DNA from: Halarcobacter sp.
Lineage (GTDB): Bacteria; Campylobacterota; Campylobacteria; Campylobacterales; Arcobacteraceae
Length of the DNA stretch: 64,000 nt
Reading direction: 5' to 3'
Assembly: GCA_963676565.1 (NCBI GenBank)
Contig: OY781089.1
Span: 864,001 to 928,000 of the forward strand
Below, piece after piece: positions 16,819 to 27,464 of the stretch; positions within the stretch are counted from its first letter, which is position 1, and each line of letters opens with the position of its first letter. A model generated the notes under the pieces. It saw nothing but the letters and a program-made list of their open reading frames with translations, was not told where the DNA came from and searched no databases. The translations under genes and the position numbers were made by a program.

Positions 16819-17385
16819 ATGTTTAATTTGCCATGCGTAATTTTATGCGGTGGTAAAAGTTCAAGAATGGGAGAAGACAAAGCTCTTCTTCCATTTTCTA
16901 CTTCTAAAACTCTTACAGAATATCAATACAAAAAATTAAAACCTTACTTCAAAGAGGTATATCTATCATCAAAAACTGAAAAGTTTAGTTTTGATAATAA
17001 ATTAATTTTAGATAAAGAAAAAGAGTATTCTCCTATAGTTGCTTTAAAATCAATATTTGAATTTTTTAAAGATGAAAGTAAACTATTTATTATAACAGTG
17101 GATACCCCACTTGTAGAAATCTCAACAATAGAAAAATTGATAAGTAAATCAAAAGATTATGATATAACCCTTGCAAAAACAGTAAATAGAGAACATAATC
17201 TGTGTGGAGTGTTTTCCACAAAAGCTATAATTGAAGTTGAAAACATGCTAAAAAACGACATCCATAAAGTTGGTTACCTTCTAAAAAAAATGGATACTAC
17301 TTTTATAGAATTTGAAAATGAGGATGAATTTATAAACCTTAATAATAAAGAAGAATATTATAAGGCAAAATCAATTATAAGCTAA
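16819..17385 (+). CDS. mobA: Molybdenum cofactor guanylyltransferase
   Basis: ILCGGKSSRMGEDKAL, VDTP, C-terminal FINLN. Confidence 0.92.
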   Translation: MFNLPCVILCGGKSSRMGEDKALLPFSTSKTLTEYQYKKLKPYFKEVYLSSKTEKFSFDNKLILDKEKEYSPIVALKSIFEFFKDESKLFIITVDTPLVEISTIEKLISKSKDYDITLAKTVNREHNLCGVFSTKAIIEVENMLKNDIHKVGYLLKKMDTTFIEFENEDEFINLNNKEEYYKAKSIIS

Positions 17386-17483
17386 AGTAATAATTATAAT
17401 TTATTTATTCAGCATAATTTAAGTTTATTATTATCAAACATTTGGTATCTTAATGAATACAATTTAAATTAAGGACTTTTATA

Positions 17484-18968
17484 ATGGGAAATAATGAGGA
17501 GCTAAAAAAAGCACTTGACATTCTAGATAGTGAGCTTAAAAAGAAAGGGATATCTAGAAGAGACGCACTTAAACTTGCTGGACTTGGTTCAGCTTCGTTT
17601 TTAATGGGAAATACAACTGAAGTTGAGGCAGCAACAATTGCACAAGCTAGTGAAGCAAAAGGTAAAATAGTAATTGTTGGTGGTGGACTAGCTGGTATTG
17701 CAACTGCTGCAAAACTTTCAAATAACTTATCAAATCCAGATATTACTGTTATTGAACCAAATCCAATTTCTGTTTCGTATCAACCTGGACAAACATTAGT
17801 TGCAGCTGGGGTATGGGAAAAATCAGACATTGTTTATAATACTAAAGATTTTGTTCCAAGTGGTGTTAAAATGATTAAGGATAAAGTTGCAGAGTTTGAC
17901 CCTGAAGCAAATAAGGTAAAAACTGAAGGTGGACAAGAGATTTCATATGACTTTTTAGTTGTTGCAACAGGTTTAGTACTTGATTATGGAAAAATTAAAG
18001 GTTTAGAAGGTGTTGGTTATTCTGCAGAAGCAAATGAAACAGTATCTCAAAAAGTTGGTAAAAATGGAGTTCATTCAATCTATTATGCCGATGGAGCTGT
18101 TAATACTTGGAAAGGTATGCAAGAGTTTATTTCTGAAGCAAAATCTGGTAAAAAAGTAAAAGGTTTATTTACTCACCCAAATACTCCAATTAAATGTGGT
18201 GGAGCTCCAAAGAAAATTATGTATTTAACTGATGCGAGATTAAGAGAAGCTGGAGTAAGGGATAATGCAGAATTATATTTTTATCCAAATGGTGGAAAAA
18301 TGTTTGGTGTTCCAGAATATCATGAAGCGATTGTAAAACAATTTGAAGCAAGAGATATGAAATGGGAATACAAAAACAATCTTGTTGAAATTGATGTTAA
18401 TAAAAAAATTGCAACTTTTGAAAAAAAATGGTTAGAAAAAGGTGCATACGACGAGATTATTGAAGATTATGAGATGATTCCTATGGCTAAAAAAATTGAA
18501 AGAGAATATGACTTTATTCATATTACTCCTCCAATGAGAGCACCAGATGCTGTTAAAAATTCTTCTTTAGCATGGCAAAGAGGTAGTGCTGCAAAAGGTG
18601 GATGGGTAGAACTTGATAAAGAGACTTTACAACATACAAGATATCCAAATGTATTTGGTCTTGGAGATGTTGCTGGTATTGCTATGGGAAAAACTGGTGG
18701 TAGTGCAAGAAAACAATATGCAGTATTAGTAGATAACTTAATTGCTGCAATGGAAGGTAAAGAGATGACTTCTAAATATGCAGGTTATACTGTATGTCCA
18801 TTAATTACTGGAATTGGTACAGTTATGTTAGCTGAATTTAATTGGACAGCAAAACCAACTCCATCATTTCCTCTAGACCCAACAGTTGAAAGATATATTT
18901 GGTGGTTATTAAAAGTTTATGCACTTAAACCTATGACTGTTTATGGAATGTTATCTGGACGAGCATAA
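17484..18968 (+). CDS. sqr: Tat-exported sulfide:quinone oxidoreductase-like flavoprotein
   Basis: SRRDALK twin-arginine motif, GGGLAG FAD fold, catalytic Cys motifs PIKCGGAP and GYTVCPL. Confidence 0.8.
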   Translation: MGNNEELKKALDILDSELKKKGISRRDALKLAGLGSASFLMGNTTEVEAATIAQASEAKGKIVIVGGGLAGIATAAKLSNNLSNPDITVIEPNPISVSYQPGQTLVAAGVWEKSDIVYNTKDFVPSGVKMIKDKVAEFDPEANKVKTEGGQEISYDFLVVATGLVLDYGKIKGLEGVGYSAEANETVSQKVGKNGVHSIYYADGAVNTWKGMQEFISEAKSGKKVKGLFTHPNTPIKCGGAPKKIMYLTDARLREAGVRDNAELYFYPNGGKMFGVPEYHEAIVKQFEARDMKWEYKNNLVEIDVNKKIATFEKKWLEKGAYDEIIEDYEMIPMAKKIEREYDFIHITPPMRAPDAVKNSSLAWQRGSAAKGGWVELDKETLQHTRYPNVFGLGDVAGIAMGKTGGSARKQYAVLVDNLIAAMEGKEMTSKYAGYTVCPLITGIGTVMLAEFNWTAKPTPSFPLDPTVERYIWWLLKVYALKPMTVYGMLSGRA

Positions 18969-18979
18969 AAGAGTAAAAA

Positions 18980-19549
18980 TTGAAAAAATTTTTAATTAGT
19001 GGTTTGATTTTATCAATTAGCCTTTGTAGTTTTGCACAAGAATTTTCAAAAGACAATGCTCAAAAGTTAGCTCATGATTTAATAAAAGAGTATAACTCTA
19101 CATTAAAAAAAGAATTAAAAGATTCAAAAAGAGCTAATAAATTAGAAGGTATGGTTAATTACTGTATCAATGATTCTAAATTGGTTGCAAAAAAACTTAA
19201 TGATAAATATGGTCCAAAAGTTTCTGTAAAAAGAATAAGTCTTAATAACAGAAATGAAAAAGCTAAAGCTAATGAAAGTGAAGAAAAGATTTTAAAAGCA
19301 TTTGAACTAATTGCAAAATCTGATGCTTATCAGCCAGATGAGATTGTCCAAATTGTTGATGATAACACTTTTAAAGTTTATTCACCTATTACTATGAATA
19401 GTAGAGACTGTAAAAAATGTCATGGGGTTGAAAAGAAAGTTGATAAAAAATCAAAAGATAGATTCTTCGAGATTTATAAAAATAACAATGCTTATGGATA
19501 TAAAAGTGGAGATGTAAGAGGTGCAGTGGTTGTCACCATCTTAAAATAG
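18980..19549 (+). CDS. Exported monoheme c-type protein, DUF3365/Tll0287-like
   Basis: Signal peptide; RISLNNRN, single CKKCH, C-terminal GYKSGDVRGA; upstream Cys (NYC) is a possible axial ligand. TTG start. Confidence 0.8.
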   Translation: MKKFLISGLILSISLCSFAQEFSKDNAQKLAHDLIKEYNSTLKKELKDSKRANKLEGMVNYCINDSKLVAKKLNDKYGPKVSVKRISLNNRNEKAKANESEEKILKAFELIAKSDAYQPDEIVQIVDDNTFKVYSPITMNSRDCKKCHGVEKKVDKKSKDRFFEIYKNNNAYGYKSGDVRGAVVVTILK

Positions 19550-19565
19550 GGGAAAGGGATTTATT

Positions 19566-20228
19566 ATGGAAATTAAAAAAACAATTTTTTTAGGCTTTTT
19601 AGCAAGTTTAATAACTATCAGTGCTAGTGCTGCTGAAAAAAAATATACAAATGCAGAGATTTATACAAAAATGTGTTCAAAATGTCATGGTGTTTATGGG
19701 GAAGGAAATCCTGCAAAAAAAGGACCTGCTTTAAACGATATGACAGCTCATGAACTAGAGATAAGTCTTTTTGATCTAAAATCTGGGGGTTTAAATCAAT
19801 CATCAGGAACTGACCATGATGTAATGGCGCACAATATGAAAAAAATTATTGAAAAGGGTATGGATTATAAACCAAATGCAATGGCCGAATATATTTTTGT
19901 TGCCTTTAATCCAGAAGCAAAATACTTTAAAATTGATAATGCAAAAAAATCATATACAATTTCAGAAATTTATACAAAAATGTGTTCTAAGTGTCATGGT
20001 GTAAATGGAGAAGGTAATCCTGCTAAAAAAGGTCCAGCATTAAATGATATGAGTGCCCATGAAATAGAAATGGAACTTTATAATATTCAAAATGGTGGAG
20101 CAGATCAATCTTCAGGAACTGATCATGAAGTTATGGAACATAATCAGAAAAAGATTGAGCAAAAAGGTATGGAATATACTCCAAAAGAGATGGCAGAATA
20201 TATAGAAAGTAAATTTTATACTAAATAA
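19566..20228 (+). CDS. Periplasmic diheme cytochrome c built from an internal duplication
   Basis: Signal peptide; two CSKCH motifs in two highly similar domains offset by 309 nt. Confidence 0.9.
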   Translation: MEIKKTIFLGFLASLITISASAAEKKYTNAEIYTKMCSKCHGVYGEGNPAKKGPALNDMTAHELEISLFDLKSGGLNQSSGTDHDVMAHNMKKIIEKGMDYKPNAMAEYIFVAFNPEAKYFKIDNAKKSYTISEIYTKMCSKCHGVNGEGNPAKKGPALNDMSAHEIEMELYNIQNGGADQSSGTDHEVMEHNQKKIEQKGMEYTPKEMAEYIESKFYTK

Positions 20229-20254
20229 GTAAAGGGAGTTTCTCTTTACTTATT
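20224..20254 (+). terminator. Hairpin terminator after the diheme cytochrome gene
   Basis: AATAAGTAAAGGGA/TCTCTTTACTTATT stem. Confidence 0.6.
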
Positions 20255-20275
20255 ATTTGAAAATAAGGGAAGGTA

Positions 20276-20503
20276 TTGGTAAATTTAAAAAAAGAGATTA
20301 CAATCTATATTGTTTTATTTATAGTCTCATCATTAGTTTTTCATAATAGTGTTTGGTTTTCTCATCCAATTGAGCATATAAGTGCTCTTTTTTCTCAGGG
20401 GATGCCTTACCATCCTTTCTTGTACACATTTTTAATCTATTTGGCACTTGGTATTATAAGACTTATTTTTGCACTTATAAAAAAAATATTCAAAAGAGGG
20501 TGA
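20276..20503 (+). CDS. Small membrane protein (2 TM, His-containing loop)
   Basis: GGAAGG RBS, TTG start; two hydrophobic helices flanking HPIEH...YHP. Confidence 0.65.
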   Translation: MVNLKKEITIYIVLFIVSSLVFHNSVWFSHPIEHISALFSQGMPYHPFLYTFLIYLALGIIRLIFALIKKIFKRG

Positions 20504-20552
20504 TTTTTTTAGTTGACTTATTTGAATGAACAATCATTATATTGGATAAAAG

Positions 20553-21674
20553 ATGAATAAAGAAAATAAAACATATGTATGGTCTTTTTTGGGAAGACTT
20601 AGCCATTGGCTACTAGTTGTGTCTTTTTTTGCATCTTTTATCACCTCTTTTTATGAAAATCTTTTAACTTTACATGTTACTTTTGGAATTATTGCTTTAG
20701 GGATGTTTATTAAAAAAATTGTATGGGGATTGATAGGTCCAAAATATGCAAGATGGAGTGATTACCATTTTGCCTTTAGTGATTTAAAGCTTTATTTTGT
20801 AGAAAAAGTTAAAAATAGATATAGACAAATACAAGCAGGACATAACCCTGCTTCTTCATGGTTTGCTTTTTTAGTCACATGGATTGGTATTATTTGTTGT
20901 CTACTTGGACTTGTTTTATATGGAGTTCAAGAAGGAAATGGAATTTTTTATTTTATGAATAATACATATTACATATATATGGAAGAGTTTTTTACTATTC
21001 ATGAAGTTCTATCATATATATTATTAGTAATGATACTTACTCATATAACTGGAGTATTAATTGAACAATTTTATCATAAAACATCTATGCTCTTTGCCAT
21101 GATAACTGGATATAAGAAATCAAAGGGTGAAGATATTAAACCAACATTTAGTATGAAGTTTTATGGCTCTATATATATTGTATTTGTTTTAGCTTTAGCA
21201 TCGTATACATATTATATACCTAATAACTTTTTAGTAAAAAGTAAATTTGAGAAGATTGATTACAAAAAATTACATGCTGATTTTCAATTTGAGTGTTCTG
21301 ATTGCCATAATTTAATTCCACCATTTTTATTGCCAAAGGAATCTTGGAAAAATTTGATGGCAAATCAAGAAGATCATTTTGAAGAGGATTTAGAGTTAGA
21401 TAACTCAATGGTAAAATCAATAGAAAAATTTTTAATAATAAATTCTTCAGAAACATCAACAAGAGAATCTTCATATAAAATAACTAAAGAATTAGCTGAT
21501 TCCAAAAAATTTATTATAACAAAAACTGATTATTGGAAGGAAACGCATAAAAATATTCCTGAAGAAGTTTTTAAAAGTGACACAATAGAAACAAAGTCCA
21601 ACTGTGTCGCATGTCATAAAGATTTTGAAAAGGGAATTCTTTCTGACTCAAAAATTACATTTTTATCAAAATAG
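20553..21674 (+). CDS. Cytochrome b (hydrogenase CybH-type) fused to a diheme cytochrome c (DHC) domain
   Basis: VW...RLSHW, GHNP and conserved TM His residues; C-terminal CSDCH...DHF...CVACH DHC pattern. Confidence 0.88.
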   Translation: MNKENKTYVWSFLGRLSHWLLVVSFFASFITSFYENLLTLHVTFGIIALGMFIKKIVWGLIGPKYARWSDYHFAFSDLKLYFVEKVKNRYRQIQAGHNPASSWFAFLVTWIGIICCLLGLVLYGVQEGNGIFYFMNNTYYIYMEEFFTIHEVLSYILLVMILTHITGVLIEQFYHKTSMLFAMITGYKKSKGEDIKPTFSMKFYGSIYIVFVLALASYTYYIPNNFLVKSKFEKIDYKKLHADFQFECSDCHNLIPPFLLPKESWKNLMANQEDHFEEDLELDNSMVKSIEKFLIINSSETSTRESSYKITKELADSKKFIITKTDYWKETHKNIPEEVFKSDTIETKSNCVACHKDFEKGILSDSKITFLSK

Positions 21675-21737
21675 CACTTATTTTGATAACTTATTCTTAT
21701 AATACAAGAAAAAAATCAAAAAATCTTATAAATTTAG

Positions 21738-21787
21738 TGAATATTCATTCAAGAATAAGAATAATTTATCAATTATCATGTTAAAAT
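21738..21787 (+). promoter_or_regulatory. TGAAT-N4-ATTCA palindrome and extended -10 (TGtTAAAAT) upstream of psrA
   Basis: TGAATATTCATTCA at 21738-21751; TAAAAT at 21782-21787. The same spacing recurs at two other promoters. Confidence 0.6.
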
Positions 21788-21842
21788 TATACAGTTAATA
21801 TAAAATAATAAGTAAATATTAATAATAAAGAGGAGAGAGAAA

Positions 21843-24290
21843 ATGCAAGTTGAGATTTCAAGAAGAAAATTTCTTCAAGGTACAGTTGCCTTATCAGTTG
21901 TAGCTGCATCAACTTCTGCACTTTCAAGTACAAAAACACATGAAGATAAAAAAACATTAGGTACAACAAAAGTTTCTAATGAAAAAGGACTAAAATTAGT
22001 TCCAACTTTATGTGAAATGTGTGTTAATAAGTGTGCTGCTTATGCAAGAGTAGAAAATGGAGTAGTAACTAAACTAGATCCTAATCCACACTTTCCAAAA
22101 TCAAAAAACATGCTTTGTGCTAGGGGAAATGCAGGAATACAAGCTTTATATGACCCAGATAGATTAAAATATCCGCTCATTCGAACTGGTGAAAGAGGTG
22201 ATGGTAAATATAAAAGAGTTACATGGGATGAAGCTTATACTTATATAACCCAAAAGATGACAAAAATCTTAGATGAAGAAGAAGATAATAGATCATGTAT
22301 TGGTTATTGTGCCGGTGAAGGTATGGCAGAGCATACTTTTAAAACATTTATGTCTGACAAAATAGGTTCAACAAACTTTGTAAACCACGCATCAATCTGT
22401 ATTCAAACAGCCGTATCAGGTTATGCCCTTACAATTGGTGGATATGGACAAGCAGATTTAGAAAATGCAAAATATGTAATTATGGCTGGAGCTAATAGAG
22501 CCGAAGCTTTTATCACCCCAGATACTATGGATATTTTTAAAAGAACAAGAGGTAAAGGTGTAAAATTAACTGTTGTTGATCCTAGATTCTCTAATACTGC
22601 AATCCATGCAGATACATATTTAGCAATTAAACCAGGTACAGATTTAGCATTTGTTTTAGCTTTAACTTACCATGTAATTAAATATGAATTATATAATAGA
22701 ACTTATGTAAAAAATAACTTCTCAAATTTCGATAAATATAAAGAGCACGTATTAAGTAGTAATTATACTCCTGAGTGGGCTGAAGAGATTACTGGAGTTC
22801 CAGCGTATGAAATTAAAAAAGTTGCAGAAGAGTTTATGGCAAATGCTCCTCAATCAATATATTATCAAGGTAGAAGGTCAACTTGGGCGGGGAATGATTT
22901 CCAACTAAGACGTGCTCAAGCAATTTTCTCTGCACTTGGTGGAGGTATTGATGTTAAAGGTGGAATTGTATTTGGTAAAAAACTTCCTTTAGATTCACAT
23001 GGAACAAATGCTCCAATGTATGCAAATGCATTAGGAAGAATTGAAAAAGATGCTGCTGCTGTAATTGGTGGTTCTGGTTCTTGGATTGCTTGGAGAAATA
23101 AAATTTTAGAAGGTAAATCTCCATATCCTATTAGAGCATTTTTTATTTATAAACAAAATCCAATGTTATCAGTTCCAAATACAGAAAAAACTAAAAAGCT
23201 ATTAGAAAAAATGGATTTAGTTGTAGCTATTGATACTATGCCAAGTGATACAGCAATGATGGCAGATGTTATTTTACCTGAGTGTACATATTTAGAAAGA
23301 GAAGACCCAATAAAATCTTTTGCTGGTGTTGAACCATCTATTGCACTTAGAAAAGCTGCCGTTAAACCAATGTATGAAACTAAACCAGTTTTAGAGATTG
23401 TAAGAGGTTTAGCTGAAAAATTATCACGTCCTTTATGGGAAATAACAAAAAAATATGATGAAGATATTCAAGATGAACTTGATGGAATGTCTAAAGAAGA
23501 GATTGAAGAATATTATAAAGAAAATGGTTTTTATCTAGCAGATGTTTACCATCATACCCAAGAACAAATAAATAAAGATATGTTTGTTCCAAAATATGGT
23601 GAAAAAGCATGGAATATCTTAAGGGAAAAAGGTGTTTATTATCCTAAGTTCTCAGAGAGTTTCAAAAAACTTGATAATAATAGTTTCCAATACTACAATG
23701 AAAAAGACAAACTTTATACAGTTGTAAAACTTGAAGATGATTCAGATCATGAAGCGATTGATACTTGTATTAATCCAAAAGATATAGCAGAAGTAAAAAG
23801 ATTATTTAAAACACCAAGTAAAAAAATTGAGTGTTATTTAGGGAATATGGCAAAAAAAGGTGTAGACCCAATGCCAATATGGAAAGATGAACTTGTTAAA
23901 AAAGTTCCAAAAGGAAAATTTAAATTTATTTGTGGAAGACATGCTCAGTTTACTCAAAATGCTACACAAAATAATGTAATGCTTCTAGAGCTTATGCCAG
24001 AAAATTATGTTTGGATAAATGATAAAGAAGCTGAAGAATTAGGTATAAAACATGGAGATTTAGTTCAAATCACAAGTAGTATAGGAATTGTAAAATTGAA
24101 AGCATTTCCAACAAATAAAATTATACCAGAAACAATTTTTTATGTTCATGGATTTGGTGCACAATCAAAAGCTTTAACATTTGGATACAGAAATGGAGCT
24201 AGTTGTAATCAAATAATTGAAGATGATATAGAACCTGTATTCGGTAGTGCAATTATGCATGAAACTATTGTTACAGTAACAAAGGCTTAA
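21843..24290 (+). CDS. psrA: Polysulfide/thiosulfate reductase-like Mo-bisMGD catalytic subunit
   Basis: Tat signal SRRKFLQ; FS0 motif CEMCVNKC...CARG; Cys ligand region HASIC; ADVILP...YLER; TPSKKIE. Confidence 0.85.
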   Translation: MQVEISRRKFLQGTVALSVVAASTSALSSTKTHEDKKTLGTTKVSNEKGLKLVPTLCEMCVNKCAAYARVENGVVTKLDPNPHFPKSKNMLCARGNAGIQALYDPDRLKYPLIRTGERGDGKYKRVTWDEAYTYITQKMTKILDEEEDNRSCIGYCAGEGMAEHTFKTFMSDKIGSTNFVNHASICIQTAVSGYALTIGGYGQADLENAKYVIMAGANRAEAFITPDTMDIFKRTRGKGVKLTVVDPRFSNTAIHADTYLAIKPGTDLAFVLALTYHVIKYELYNRTYVKNNFSNFDKYKEHVLSSNYTPEWAEEITGVPAYEIKKVAEEFMANAPQSIYYQGRRSTWAGNDFQLRRAQAIFSALGGGIDVKGGIVFGKKLPLDSHGTNAPMYANALGRIEKDAAAVIGGSGSWIAWRNKILEGKSPYPIRAFFIYKQNPMLSVPNTEKTKKLLEKMDLVVAIDTMPSDTAMMADVILPECTYLEREDPIKSFAGVEPSIALRKAAVKPMYETKPVLEIVRGLAEKLSRPLWEITKKYDEDIQDELDGMSKEEIEEYYKENGFYLADVYHHTQEQINKDMFVPKYGEKAWNILREKGVYYPKFSESFKKLDNNSFQYYNEKDKLYTVVKLEDDSDHEAIDTCINPKDIAEVKRLFKTPSKKIECYLGNMAKKGVDPMPIWKDELVKKVPKGKFKFICGRHAQFTQNATQNNVMLLELMPENYVWINDKEAEELGIKHGDLVQITSSIGIVKLKAFPTNKIIPETIFYVHGFGAQSKALTFGYRNGASCNQIIEDDIEPVFGSAIMHETIVTVTKA

Positions 24291-24292
24291 CT

Positions 24293-24946
24293 ATGAATTA
24301 TGCAATGGCGTTAGATTACCAAAACTGTATTAATTGTAAAGCTTGTGAGACAGCTTGTAAAGAAGAAAATGGTGTTCAACTAGGAGCAGATAAACAAAGA
24401 ATTTGGGTAGGAATTGTTGAAGGATCAATTTTTGATAAACCTTTTGTAAATTTATACCCATCTCAATGTAATCACTGTGTAGATGCACCATGTGTTAGTG
24501 TTTGTCCAACATTTGCAAGCCATATTATTGAAGGTGGGATTGTAAAAGTAGATGCTGACAAATGTATTTTATGTAAAGGTTGTATGGAAGCATGTCCTTA
24601 TGATGCTAGATTTGTTGATGATACAAAATTAGCTGTGGATAAATGTACTTTCTGTGACCATAGAATTGAAGAAACTGGGACAACAGCATGCCAAGCAACA
24701 TGCCCTACAAATGTTAGGATGTTTGGTGACTTAGATGATGAAAATAGTGATTTAGTAAAACTTCTGAAAAAAGAAAGATTTTTCTTCCAAAAAGAGGATG
24801 CTGGAACTTTACCAAAATTGTTCTATATTGTTCCAAGAACTGATAACTATGCAAGACAAAGTATCTCTCATGATACAAAAATATATACTTGGGACAGCTT
24901 TCAAACAGAGTTTTACCAACGAAGTTTAAAGAATAAAAGGAGCTAA
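24293..24946 (+). CDS. psrB: 4Fe-4S electron-transfer subunit (PsrB/NrfC-like)
   Basis: CINCKACETAC, CNHC...CVSVCP, CILCKGCMEACP, KCTFC...CQATCP. Confidence 0.9.
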   Translation: MNYAMALDYQNCINCKACETACKEENGVQLGADKQRIWVGIVEGSIFDKPFVNLYPSQCNHCVDAPCVSVCPTFASHIIEGGIVKVDADKCILCKGCMEACPYDARFVDDTKLAVDKCTFCDHRIEETGTTACQATCPTNVRMFGDLDDENSDLVKLLKKERFFFQKEDAGTLPKLFYIVPRTDNYARQSISHDTKIYTWDSFQTEFYQRSLKNKRS

Positions 24947-24948
24947 CA

Positions 24949-26211
24949 ATGGAAAAATATACTATTGCAGGGCTTGAAATTAATAAGGTGTCATTCAAAG
25001 AACTTTTCTTTAATAAAACAATGTTTATTGCATATATCTTAATTGCTATTGCCATTGTTGGTGTTATAGAAATTTTTGAATTAAGATATTTTTCTGAAGT
25101 TGCAACTGCTCACTCTTTAGGTGTGGAACCTATTACTGACGAACTAAGACATGCTATGAGAAATGCAATATTTGGTGATGTGGGTGAGATTAGTAGAGAA
25201 AACCCATGGACTCTTTTCATTGCAAACTATATGTACATGATTTATACTGGAAGTGGAGTGATTTTTTTAGTTGCTTTAGCAGAACTATTAAATTTCAAAG
25301 TAGTTGAAAAAGTAGCTGCATCATTTATGGTAGTTGGTTTAGCAATGGTTTTTGCAGGATTATTTACTATCGCTACAGACTTAAATTTATTAAATATGCA
25401 CTGGATGTTTTTAAGTCCAAACGTAAATACTGGTATGTGGTTGATGTTACCTTTATACTTGACATATATACCTTTTGTTATGTTTGAAATATACTTAATT
25501 TTAACAAATAAAAGAGAATTAGCAAAAAAATTAGCATTTCCAATTCTAATTATGAGTATTGGTGTTGACTTAGTAGAATATTATATACAAGCAAAACTGT
25601 TTTCTATGAATACAGCAAGACATTTATGGACTGAGTTTCCAGCTTTGATGTTCTATTTTATTATCTCTGCATTCGTATCATCTTTAGGGATAATGGGAGT
25701 ACTTACTTATTTAGTTCATAGAAATAAAAGTGGATATCAAAAACTAATGGCTTTAATTAGAAAAGCTATGTTATTTTTTATATTTTTATTGGCAATATAT
25801 GAAGTAATTGGGTATTTAATTATAGACAAAGATTGGGCATTTATTATATTATTTGGTGAATTTAGGTTATTATATTTTGGTGGATATATTTTATTTACTC
25901 TTGTTTTACCATTCTTATTATTATTTAGAATATTAAAACATTATATCCTTCCTGCTTGTATTTCAGCAATCATTGGAGGTTTTATAGGTAGATATTTATT
26001 TGTCTATGGTGGTAATGCAAACCCAATGTCAGACAGGTTTGGTGTAGGTTATGAAAAATATAATTTTTATGATATTTCAACAAATTTTAATTATGTGCCA
26101 CCACATTTAGGTGAGATTTTAATTGTTATTGGCTCTATTGGTATTATTATAGCAGCTTACAAATTATTAGATACATTATTTTCAATTAATAAAGAAAGAG
26201 AATTACATTAA
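24949..26211 (+). CDS. psrC: NrfD/PsrC-family membrane anchor
   Basis: Polytopic; PW..FIANY and ARHLW motifs; follows psrAB. Confidence 0.85.
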   Translation: MEKYTIAGLEINKVSFKELFFNKTMFIAYILIAIAIVGVIEIFELRYFSEVATAHSLGVEPITDELRHAMRNAIFGDVGEISRENPWTLFIANYMYMIYTGSGVIFLVALAELLNFKVVEKVAASFMVVGLAMVFAGLFTIATDLNLLNMHWMFLSPNVNTGMWLMLPLYLTYIPFVMFEIYLILTNKRELAKKLAFPILIMSIGVDLVEYYIQAKLFSMNTARHLWTEFPALMFYFIISAFVSSLGIMGVLTYLVHRNKSGYQKLMALIRKAMLFFIFLLAIYEVIGYLIIDKDWAFIILFGEFRLLYFGGYILFTLVLPFLLLFRILKHYILPACISAIIGGFIGRYLFVYGGNANPMSDRFGVGYEKYNFYDISTNFNYVPPHLGEILIVIGSIGIIIAAYKLLDTLFSINKERELH

Positions 26212-26224
26212 TAAGGAGAAAAAA

Positions 26225-27409
26225 ATGAAATTAATTCTAAAAAGTTTAGTAGTGGTTGGATTACTAGCTACAGGTGTGTTTGCAAACGACCCAGGGGCTT
26301 TAACAAAGCCTAGTGCAAAAGTTCAGGCAATGATTGATAAATTCAATCTTAAAGTTGTAGACTTTAAATATGTTAAAGCAAGACTTGGAAAAGGAACAAG
26401 AAATACGGCTAAAATAATTTTAGTTGATGCTAGACCAGCAAAAAAATATATGGGTGGAACAATTCCTAGCTCAATTAATATCCCAGATACTGATTATGCA
26501 AATTATATTGGACAATTAAAAGATACTCCAAAAAATAAAGAGATTGTAGTTTATTGTGGTGGATGGAAATGTGGTAAATCTCCAAAAGTTGCAAATATGC
26601 TTAAAAAAGATGGATTTACAAATGTTAAATTATATCAAGCAGGTGAGCCTGAGTGGAGTAAATTAAATTATAGAGAAGTTGGGCTTCCAGTTATTAAAGC
26701 TGTTCAAGCTAAAAATAGTGGTGTTATTATTGATGCTAGACCATTTGCAAAATATTTACAAGAAACAATTCCTGGAGCAATTGCTATTCCAGATACTCAA
26801 GTTGAAGAGTTAAAAGGAAGATTTCCTGTAAATCATAGTGAAAAAATTATCACTTTCTGTGGTGGATTTAAATGTGCGAAATCTCATAAAATTGCTAAAA
26901 AATTAATCTCTATGGGATATAGTGATGTAAATGTATATGCTGCAGGTATGCCAGAATGGAAAAAAGCTGGATTAGCTACAACTAAATCAGCTTCTACAGC
27001 TAAAGCACCTATTAAAGCAGAAGGTGCAAAGTTTTCTAAAAATGGTGCTAAATTAAGTATTGACGAAGGTGGAGTTGATGGTGAATGGTTCTATGCTTTA
27101 TATAAAGATGGGAAATTACCAGAGTATATTCAAATTGTTGATATTAGAGATGCTGTAGAGTACAAAGAAGGTCATTTAAAAGGGGCTATTAATGTACCTG
27201 CTGAAAAAGCAAGTGCCAAAGATTTTTATGAAAAATTACCAAAAGGTAAAACTTTAGTATTCCATTGTAGTGCAGGTGGTAGATCTGTGGAAGCTTGGCA
27301 AAAATTACAAGGTGCAAAATACGATGTTTCTGAGATTTTCTATTTTGATGCAAATATAGATTGTAAAGGAACTGAGTGTAAAGTTGAGGTTAATGAACCT
27401 ATTGGTTAA
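26225..27409 (+). CDS. Periplasmic three-domain rhodanese (sulfurtransferase)
   Basis: Signal peptide; three DAR/DIR...G.I/LPG/KGA domains with loops CGGWKC, CGGFKC and CSAGGRS. Confidence 0.88.
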   Translation: MKLILKSLVVVGLLATGVFANDPGALTKPSAKVQAMIDKFNLKVVDFKYVKARLGKGTRNTAKIILVDARPAKKYMGGTIPSSINIPDTDYANYIGQLKDTPKNKEIVVYCGGWKCGKSPKVANMLKKDGFTNVKLYQAGEPEWSKLNYREVGLPVIKAVQAKNSGVIIDARPFAKYLQETIPGAIAIPDTQVEELKGRFPVNHSEKIITFCGGFKCAKSHKIAKKLISMGYSDVNVYAAGMPEWKKAGLATTKSASTAKAPIKAEGAKFSKNGAKLSIDEGGVDGEWFYALYKDGKLPEYIQIVDIRDAVEYKEGHLKGAINVPAEKASAKDFYEKLPKGKTLVFHCSAGGRSVEAWQKLQGAKYDVSEIFYFDANIDCKGTECKVEVNEPIG

Positions 27410-27430: not shown

Positions 27431-27464
27431 AAAAAGGGAAGAGTTTAGACTTTTCCCTTTTTTT
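27431..27464 (+). terminator. Intrinsic terminator ending the psr-rhodanese operon
   Basis: AAAAAGGGAAGAG...CTTTTCCCTTTTTT stem plus T run. Confidence 0.8.

Follow-up and report, generated by a model that had tools for sequence, protein, structure and literature searches.

Why does one stretch of a bacterial chromosome encode, side by side, an enzyme of sulfide oxidation and an enzyme of the polysulfide reductase (Psr) type? The question is raised by a gene cluster in Halarcobacter sp., which lies in a window of 64,000 nucleotides (nt; the whole stretch of DNA analysed here) of a genome of 3.34 Mb in a single contig. Ten co-oriented open reading frames (ORFs) on the + strand, at positions 16819-27409 as given by the initial annotation, make up this cluster. 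They comprise a sulfide:quinone oxidoreductase (SQR) homologue with a set of haem and membrane proteins, followed by the three subunits of a molybdenum (Mo) enzyme, MoABC, and a triple-rhodanese protein. Families were assigned by Pfam, NCBIfam and PDB searches, ORF starts being set mechanically, and the matches together with the ORF coordinates bore out the gene content that had been proposed. Altogether, our results indicate that the paired SQR and Mo modules probably act jointly in a manner that has so far gone undescribed, and that their functional coupling is likely, though not obligatory. As to the nature of this coupling, we tentatively favour, somewhat short of real confidence, a two-way valve between sulfide and zero-valent sulfur (S0) at the quinone pool.

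We examined how often the two modules are found together. Among the 79 best-matching loci with a gene related to that of the Mo subunit, SQR was scored where at least 5 kb of upstream flank was available (n=55), and an SQR gene was present within the flank of 16 of these. Linkage was frequent in Arcobacteraceae (9/10) and Sulfurovaceae (5/7), was seen in 2/14 unclassified loci, and did not occur in Sulfurospirillaceae (0/15), Desulfobulbaceae with Desulfocapsaceae (0/3) or Sulfurimonadaceae (0/4). The conservation for which the initial annotation had suggested a cluster search is thus partial: the halves are co-located in several families, in varied orders, but each half also stands alone, as the Mo enzyme does in Sulfurospirillaceae and in the three Desulfobulbales loci. 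We also tallied by hand the two gene families in a sample of 201 Campylobacterales genomes, calling the Mo family at E<=1e-150. Tat-SQR (the SQR type of the window, which carries a twin-arginine translocation (Tat) signal) was present in 113 of these genomes, the Mo family in 51 and both in 30. SQR and Mo genes were no more than 3 kb apart in nine of these 30 genomes and no more than 8 kb apart in one more, several others being split over contigs.

The linked genomes cover four families (f1, f4, f19 and f24) and at least five gene orders. In Halarcobacter, SQR is followed by a Tll0287-like haem protein, cytochrome c, a small membrane protein (sTM), a fusion of cytochrome b561 with a dihaem cytochrome c (DHC) domain, MoABC and the rhodanese. 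The order is SQR-cytochrome c-sTM-MoABC-rhodanese in Malaciobacter and SQR-cytochrome c-b561-DHC-MoABC, with or without sTM behind it, in Sulfurovum and f19. A further f19 order is MoABC-SQR-cytochrome c-b561-DHC with a divergent sTM, and in f4 (SQR-cytochrome c-MoABC-Tll0287-like-b561-DHC-sTM) the SQR module encloses the Mo genes. Eight further loci labelled Halarcobacter or Arcobacter carry the cluster in its entire arrangement, and Malaciobacter and Sulfurovum have parts of it; it is far from what chance would produce.

In a FastTree phylogeny of 94 members of the Mo-subunit family, rooted on the canonical copy of the same genome and read with FastTree support values only, SQR-linked subunits occupy three clades. 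Essentially all members of the Sulfurovum/f19/f4 clade that have enough flank are SQR-linked; a second linked clade is formed by Halarcobacter enzymes of the type termed C2, and the window's own Halarcobacter/Malaciobacter C1 clade nests among rhodanese-only members from Sulfurospirillum and Desulfobulbales. The two types are told apart by their B and C subunits: a 217-aa iron-sulfur (FeS) subunit with a 420-aa anchor in C1 (the window), and a 187-aa FeS subunit with a 390-410-aa anchor, ~22% identical to the C1 anchor, in C2. At one Halarcobacter site the SQR module stays the same, and one or the other of these two Psr-like lineages stands behind it. The differing orders and clades point to several independent or long-maintained associations, although kin are not independent. 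On the side of the exchange itself, loci L002 and L022-L027 differ from the window, L001 and L003 by an FeS identity of 56-59% against 88-97% and an anchor identity of ~22% against 83-96%; by these comparisons, this is a whole-operon replacement of the Mo cassette at a fixed site between the SQR module and the rhodanese.

Such exchange also bears on a reading in which there is no coupling at all, the site between leuC-mobA and rplT being an insertion hot spot of Arcobacteraceae that gathers unrelated sulfur genes. In line with this, the content of the site varies (SQR and rhodanese only; SQR, cytochrome c, sTM and MoABC; or the full set), whole Mo-enzyme cassettes are swapped there, and each module occurs alone in many genomes. 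Against it, the linkage recurs elsewhere in the genomes of three further families with the gene orders shuffled. Moreover, by a rough estimate for a 2-Mb genome, two genes would fall within 5 kb of each other with a chance of ~0.5%, versus the 9/30 genomes observed. We therefore consider mere neighbourhood very improbable.

The first enzyme of the pair, encoded at 17484-18968 (+, 494 aa), is a homologue of type II SQR. Its residues 61-489 align to chain residues 5-389 of human SQOR (PDB 6oi5, E 6.8e-81), which amounts to full-length homology, and the FAD motif is kept. C238 (IKCGG) and C438 (TVCPL) align with SQOR chain positions 161 and 339, which we take to be the redox-active Cys201 and Cys379 of the human enzyme (numbering offset by 40 from the PDB chain). 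Both were invariant in two alignments of SQR homologues (121/121 and 32/32). A loss of a catalytic Cys (GDC to GDV) was considered and rejected: that Cys is neither of the active-site residues, both of which are retained. The C-terminal segment from R470 to G492, invariant in the alignment of 32 homologues, is compatible with membrane and quinone binding but is no proof of it. Compared with human SQOR and bacterial SqrB acting with a rhodanese acceptor, the window protein is thus alike in its homology, both Cys and the FAD motif, and in the SQR-adjacent rhodanese of some relatives, but it differs in its predicted export by Tat (motif SRRDAL at residue 24) and in its private neighbours sTM, cytochrome c and b561-DHC. 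With the queries used, no second type II SQR was found in the host genome. A Tat motif on epsilonproteobacterial type II SQRs has been published before (PMC4584964).

We next determined which genes accompany the Tat-SQR gene. The 30 best SQR loci carry flanks of 1.5 kb only, and the b561-DHC count was read by hand from the rows. A cytochrome c gene directly follows SQR in 19 of these loci and a b561-DHC gene or fragment comes next in 15, while sTM is present in 13. In genus g2, which accounts for four of the 30, the triple rhodanese directly follows SQR and there is nothing else. These g2 loci (L104-L106 and L108), from the family of the window, read leuC-mobA-SQR-rhodanese, without cytochromes, sTM or Mo enzyme, and represent the minimal form of the locus. 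In more distant SQR clades (32-49% identity, 20 loci), sTM adjoins SQR in 8/20 by reading of the rows and cytochromes do so in 0/20. With 31 loci in all in which it pairs with the SQR gene, sTM is the most widespread neighbour of Tat-SQR. Campylobacterales type II SQR therefore often travels with sTM, with a cytochrome c that is usually a lipoprotein, and with a b561-DHC fusion. The initial annotation had credited the whole cluster with its own cytochrome wiring; the cytochromes are indeed present, but the wiring belongs to the SQR module and occurs without Psr in many genomes.

The sTM protein (20276-20503, +) consists of 75 aa with two hydrophobic helices and matched no Pfam or NCBIfam family. 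H23, P31, H46 and P47 are invariant in 32 sequences. It falls in 145 database clusters, of which the organism-named ones are Campylobacterota proteins called hypothetical, a few JGI entries bearing unrelated automatic labels. When natural fusions of sTM to longer proteins were sought, none turned up, which is weak evidence.

The haem proteins of the module are three. The Tll0287-like gene (18980-19549, +; PF11845, 76 bits) encodes a predicted periplasmic monohaem c protein with an N-terminal hydrophobic signal-like segment and one CxxCH at residue 144, and also adjoins b561-DHC in the f4 loci. The cytochrome c gene (19566-20228, +) encodes a 220-aa class-I protein, predicted to be secreted and dihaem, with two PF00034 stretches, CxxCH at residues 37 and 140 and an N-terminal hydrophobic signal-like segment in its translation. 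Outside Halarcobacter and Malaciobacter the protein is monohaem, ~125 aa long and carries an LxGC lipobox; by its sequence the window form is an internal duplication of the monohaem one, predicted to be soluble where the others are lipoproteins. In Sulfurovum-type loci (L063:7989-8567, L071:7875-8441, L075:7906-8445, L093:2974-3597 and others), the lipoprotein form bears a long acidic Pro/Ala/Glu-rich low-complexity C-terminal tail, which is absent in arcobacters. The b561-DHC fusion (20553-21674, +; PF01292, 52.8 bits; PF09626, 101.9 bits) has seven His in its membrane part and CxxCH at residues 248 and 351, and matches the DHC structure 2fw5 with an E of 8e-14.

The closest parallel for this branch is the sphaeroides haem protein (SHP) system of the Rhodobacter sphaeroides type, in which a b561-family protein and a DHC likewise stand beside small periplasmic haem proteins. 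In the window, however, b561 and DHC are fused, the partners are a class-I cytochrome c and the Tll0287-like protein, and there is no DUF1924 in the cluster. The host genome has a further locus of this kind (L110:4371-6407, C1:535371-537407), with genes for DUF1924, DHC and cytochrome b561 and a second DHC ORF overlapping the b561 ORF, then a response regulator and a histidine kinase. We take its DUF1924 protein to be SHP-like and the cluster, presumably, to resemble the SHP system, in which quinol electrons would pass out to a periplasmic haem protein; the overlapping DHC ORF may be a frameshifted or split fusion.

These neighbours leave room for a reading in which the flavoprotein is not a quinone reductase. 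It would then pass sulfide electrons to cytochrome c in the manner of flavocytochrome c sulfide dehydrogenase (FccAB), or would operate backwards as a sulfur/persulfide reductase, with b561-DHC and cytochrome c bringing it electrons from menaquinol. The likeness to FccAB lies in a Tat-exported sulfide-oxidising flavoprotein, as predicted here, whose gene adjoins that of a dihaem cytochrome c. SQR, cytochrome c and b561-DHC are kept together without Psr (the 19/30 and 15/30 loci above), b561 and DHC cluster with a DUF1924 haem protein elsewhere in the genome, and SQR is said to be able to run reductively in Sulfurovum NBC37-1 (PMC10045233, citing others). Yet the window flavoprotein matches FccB in the N-terminal FAD region only (1fcd, E 7e-16, residues 60-175) and lacks PF09242, and its cytochrome c showed no significant match to FccA (E 0.45). 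A separate FccB-type gene, the only PF09242 match of the genome, stands at C1:2707285-2707491. Both SQOR catalytic Cys and the conserved C-terminal segment are retained, and the distant SQR clade has sTM only, without cytochromes (8/20 loci). Altogether, we hold this reading to be quite improbable.

The second enzyme is a molybdoenzyme of three subunits. The catalytic subunit (21843-24290, +, 815 aa), predicted to bind a molybdenum-bis-pyranopterin guanine dinucleotide (Mo-bisPGD) cofactor, has three MopB domains and a Tat motif, SRRKFL, at residue 6. Its best PDB match is PsrA of Thermus thermophilus (2vpw, E 5.8e-100), followed by formate dehydrogenase (1e-48) and ArrA (2.5e-46). Cys57/60/64/92 form the N-terminal 4Fe-4S motif, and Cys186 aligns with the Cys of the SLCTAP stretch of 2vpw, which is presumably the Mo ligand. 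Across the family, the twin-arginine motif was found in 94/94 rows and an H-x-x-[ILV]-C motif in 93/94; since the former is present in all 94 rows, the family would face the periplasm. The initial annotation had set two outcomes against its own proposal, a Mo enzyme grouping with non-sulfur reductases, or halves neither conserved together nor responsive to sulfur. Profile and PDB scores assign the Mo subunit to the Psr/Phs lineage rather than to Arr, Ttr, Dms or Nap, and the locus survey finds the halves co-located, so that neither outcome came about.

The same proposal spoke of a PsrABC-like complex. The Psr/Phs lineage stands, but the enzyme is not the canonical one, which is encoded ~950 kb away in the same genome, at C1:1,835,991. 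The window subunit is 31% identical to this canonical copy and falls below the PhsA cut-off (NF012032, 479 bits versus 694), a model against which the canonical copy scores 1075 bits. The canonical locus also encodes a 189-aa FeS subunit and a 329-aa NrfD protein (Pfam, 263 bits) and adjoins a two-component system: at L111:3980-10522 (C1:1835979-1842521), PsrABC/PhsABC genes are followed by those for a response regulator, a histidine kinase and a dCache_3 sensor. In the window, the FeS subunit (24293-24946, +, 217 aa) is a four-cluster protein without signal peptide (PF13247 and related families, 16 Cys). The anchor (24949-26211, +, 420 aa) belongs to the NrfD family (PF03916, 47.7 bits over residues 82-356) and has ~10 hydrophobic segments by hydropathy, as against ~320 aa expected of a canonical PsrC-type anchor, which has eight helices. 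It gave no PDB sequence match at E<=1; Atlas labelled it NrfD/PsrC anchor (0.98) and otherwise returned generic names only. Set against PsrABC and Sud of Wolinella succinogenes and the 2vpw structure, the window enzyme is therefore alike in its Tat MopB subunit, 4Fe-4S motif, aligned Cys, four-cluster FeS subunit, NrfD-family anchor and periplasmic rhodanese-type helper. It differs in its low identity to the canonical copy, its PhsA score, a ~100-residue insert of the Mo subunit relative to 2vpw and its large anchor. We conclude that, by sequence, it belongs to a separate Tat-exported Psr-like family that is not canonical PsrA/PhsA.

Other observations concern molybdoenzymes beyond the window. 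Sulfurospirillum genomes often carry two Mo operons in tandem, each with a rhodanese. In locus L054, from a Desulfobacterales metagenome-assembled genome (MAG), a phage-type integrase gene (L054:16166-17416) stands just downstream of the MoABC-rhodanese set. The set of this Desulfobulbales-type locus is 66-69% identical to Campylobacterota proteins, which suggests horizontal transfer between phyla. Two further MopB genes of the host, at C1:1974641-1976356 and C1:1980508-1982184, each contain one in-frame TGA within open frames of ~946 aa and are probably selenocysteine formate dehydrogenases.

What the two modules would share is the protein encoded last in the cluster, a 394-aa triple rhodanese (26225-27409, +; PF00581 in three stretches, 161 bits) with an N-terminal hydrophobic signal-like segment and predicted to be secreted. 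Its Cys pairs 111/116 and 212/217 and its single Cys348 all lie in loop motifs. The loop of domains 1 and 2 reads CGG[WF]KC, its two Cys standing five residues apart, and that of domain 3 is of the usual single-Cys type, CSAGGRS; this difference may reflect a division of labour between disulfide/trisulfide chemistry and persulfide carriage. Sud is a single-domain protein, whereas the window helper carries three rhodanese domains and is encoded in the operon. In the Mo-locus survey, the triple rhodanese was found downstream of the Mo enzyme in 34 of the 57 loci with at least 3.8 kb of downstream sequence. It follows MoABC without SQR in Sulfurospirillum and Desulfobulbales, and SQR without MoABC in g2. 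The rhodanese that had been proposed as a partner within the cluster is thus a partner of either enzyme, and because it is found with either one alone, it would be a sulfane carrier for both.

That the carrier would be common to both enzymes is what leads us to the valve. SQR, the Mo enzyme and the carrier all bear export signals and so face the periplasm, and from family membership both enzymes would act through the menaquinone pool. Tat-SQR, with sTM as its putative membrane partner, would oxidise sulfide to enzyme-bound sulfane sulfur and reduce menaquinone. If the SHP-type system is taken as the model, b561-DHC and cytochrome c would join the quinone pool to periplasmic cytochrome c. The MoABC enzyme would most likely reduce free polysulfide or rhodanese-bound sulfane to sulfide with menaquinol, its genes being probably under their own promoter. 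The triple rhodanese would be the common sulfane carrier. SQR and the Mo enzyme are probably not active simultaneously. The initial annotation had proposed a sulfide/polysulfide cycle or switch; a simple cycle with both enzymes working at once would be futile and is not retained.

Besides the linkage of the modules, the observations that favour the valve include induction by S0 in a relative and a conserved gap in front of the Mo genes, as well as the presence in the genome of SoxB and of the canonical Psr/Phs with its own two-component system. In Sulfurovum indicum, psrA3B3C3 (RS06785-06775) was up-regulated 4- to 7-fold under S0 reduction (PMC10045233). In this genome psrA3B3C3 is followed by a gene for glyceraldehyde-3-phosphate dehydrogenase, as in Sulfurovum locus L058, and it is a probable member of the window's Mo family, its orthology being judged from synteny only. 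In the window, a 168-nt gap separates b561-DHC from the Mo subunit (21675-21842). Three Halarcobacter loci align over it with a mean column identity of 85%. This conservation would fit separate regulation of the Mo genes in Halarcobacter, and the gap is a candidate promoter/operator containing a 10-nt palindrome flanked by an inverted repeat. The palindrome was tried as a regulon signal; it has 20 copies in the genome versus ~17 by a rough chance estimate, and because this count is close to chance it is not a usable signal.

Several points weigh against the valve. If SQR and a polysulfide reductase are expressed together, as the nested order of f4 suggests, their cycle would be futile. Because the Mo subunit is only 31% identical to the canonical copy and fails the PhsA cut-off, polysulfide is no more than a candidate substrate; thiosulfate, tetrathionate and selenite are the other candidates. 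A role for the branch of b561-DHC and cytochrome c is proposed by analogy. At genome level co-occurrence is not enriched, SQR being present in 30/51 Mo-family genomes (59%) versus 113/201 (56%), and the modules occur separately in many genomes, as noted above. The only characterised operon that we found with a large anchor and rhodanese proteins encodes a selenite reductase, Srr (PMC12481199). Finally, the sole expression datum of its kind, that for a b561-DHC-type fusion of S. indicum (IMZ28_RS00035), shows down-regulation with S0 (PMC10045233, whose supplementary tables list differentially expressed genes only).

The prospect of a futile cycle under co-expression favours a cooperative arrangement with another substrate or direction. 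The pair would then form a small respiratory chain in which SQR feeds menaquinone and the Psr-like enzyme spends the electrons on another chalcogen acceptor such as tetrathionate or selenite. Alternatively, the Psr-like enzyme would cleave thiosulfate and SQR would re-oxidise the released sulfide, for a net conversion of thiosulfate to S0 and sulfite with a closed quinone cycle; in either form the rhodanese would take the S or Se product. Co-expression is suggested by the nested, co-oriented f4 order and by the Sulfurovum/f19/f4 Mo clade, in which the linkage is constant; a canonical Psr/Phs is already present in the genome. Srr of Bacillus selenitireducens combines a Psr-type A subunit with a 43-kDa anchor and two rhodanese proteins (PMC12481199), and PsrA, PhsA and SrrA are described as one lineage (PMC10100899). 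A Psr homologue is involved in tetrathionate respiration in Shewanella ANA-3 (PMC12949373), and thiosulfate reductase, SQR and sulfite dehydrogenase are jointly abundant in the thiosulfate-disproportionating Sulfurovum MH2-6 (PMC13609358). Compared by description with SrrABCDEF of strain MLS10, the window shares the Psr/Phs-lineage Tat subunit, the FeS subunit, the large anchor and rhodanese-domain proteins, but has one triple rhodanese instead of two proteins and lacks an SrrD-type chaperone gene: Pfam and NCBIfam searches found no TorD/SrrD-like gene among the cluster genes. The absence of a chaperone gene speaks against the cooperative chain, as do the S0 induction of the probable family member in S. 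indicum and the conserved 168-nt gap, which suggests separate regulation in Halarcobacter. We regard this chain as unlikely, but as deserving serious weight.

A bolder form of the same idea would make of the whole an undescribed respiratory unit of Campylobacterales, in which a Tat-SQR held by sTM and wired by lipoprotein cytochrome c and b561-DHC is obligately paired with the Psr-like molybdoenzyme. The unit would drive thiosulfate, tetrathionate or selenite reduction with sulfide, or its molybdoenzyme would run in reverse as an energy-conserving sulfide dehydrogenase, the halves cooperating and not opposing each other. This, too, we think unlikely, a little more so than the chain itself.

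In another reading both enzymes are oxidative: the Psr-like complex would run in reverse as a sulfide/polysulfide dehydrogenase reducing menaquinone, possibly conserving energy, beside a non-electrogenic SQR, and the cytochrome branch would pass electrons to cytochrome c oxidase or denitrification enzymes. By textbook potentials, electron transfer from sulfide to menaquinone is exergonic, whereas that from menaquinol to polysulfide is not. The host, whose genome encodes SoxB, is a Sox-containing sulfur oxidiser, and in genera of sulfur oxidisers, Sulfurovum and Halarcobacter among them, the Mo genes are linked to oxidative ones. Yet the same Mo family occurs with rhodanese and without SQR in Sulfurospirillum and Desulfobulbales, which are sulfur reducers and disproportionators, and its probable member in S. 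indicum is induced during S0 reduction. We judge such purely oxidative operation quite improbable, and keep the valve as the working model.

The remaining features define the borders of the cluster. Intergenic spacing within it is 2-49 nt, save for the 168-nt gap and an AT-rich 98-nt gap between mobA and SQR (17386-17483), a candidate promoter region with 84% mean column identity to two relatives. The first of the ten ORFs, mobA (16819-17385, +), encodes a molybdenum cofactor guanylyltransferase (NF001837, 194 bits versus a cut-off of 182) and had been counted as a gene of the cluster. It starts 3 nt past leuC, in an upstream unit glmM-lspA-leuC-mobA, and leuC-mobA precedes the SQR gene in 9/30 of the best SQR loci, some of them without a nearby Mo enzyme. 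Because of this spacing and recurrence, mobA is a resident housekeeping gene of the leuC operon and not specific to the sulfur cluster. At the other end, a strong intrinsic-terminator-like hairpin (27431-27462, +; a 14-bp stem, then a T-run) closes the cluster, and rplT, infC and thrS follow on the opposite strand. The G+C content of the window is ~30%. Among public sequences, the locus comes closest to that of a Halarcobacter sp. MAG, which shows 97% identity across the Mo subunit. Four RNA runs, matched by species label alone, gave 0 reads over 11.2 kb, a result that says nothing for or against expression.

Parts of this picture are already known: a Tat-motif type II SQR in the group, multiple psr-like clusters in Campylobacterota, and rhodanese helpers of Psr-type enzymes. 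In the literature searched, which did not cover subscription papers, we found no description of the sTM family, of the conserved SQR/cytochrome c/b561-DHC set, of its linkage to a Psr-like enzyme or of the shared triple rhodanese. At vents and seeps, in sediments and at oxyclines, Campylobacterales (Sulfurovum, Sulfurimonas, arcobacters) are the dominant sulfide oxidisers, and annotation of their genomes routinely treats 'SQR' and 'Psr' as separate boxes. Our analysis indicates that Tat-SQR has conserved private partners, that a distinct Psr-like family stands repeatedly beside them, and that the same triple rhodanese accompanies either enzyme; sTM and the Psr-like family are concrete, testable targets. 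If the modules cooperate, current models of electron partitioning among sulfide, zero-valent sulfur and the cytochrome c pool in these bacteria would have to be revised. The same would hold for models of how sulfur cycling, disproportionation-like metabolism included, is avoided or put to use by them.

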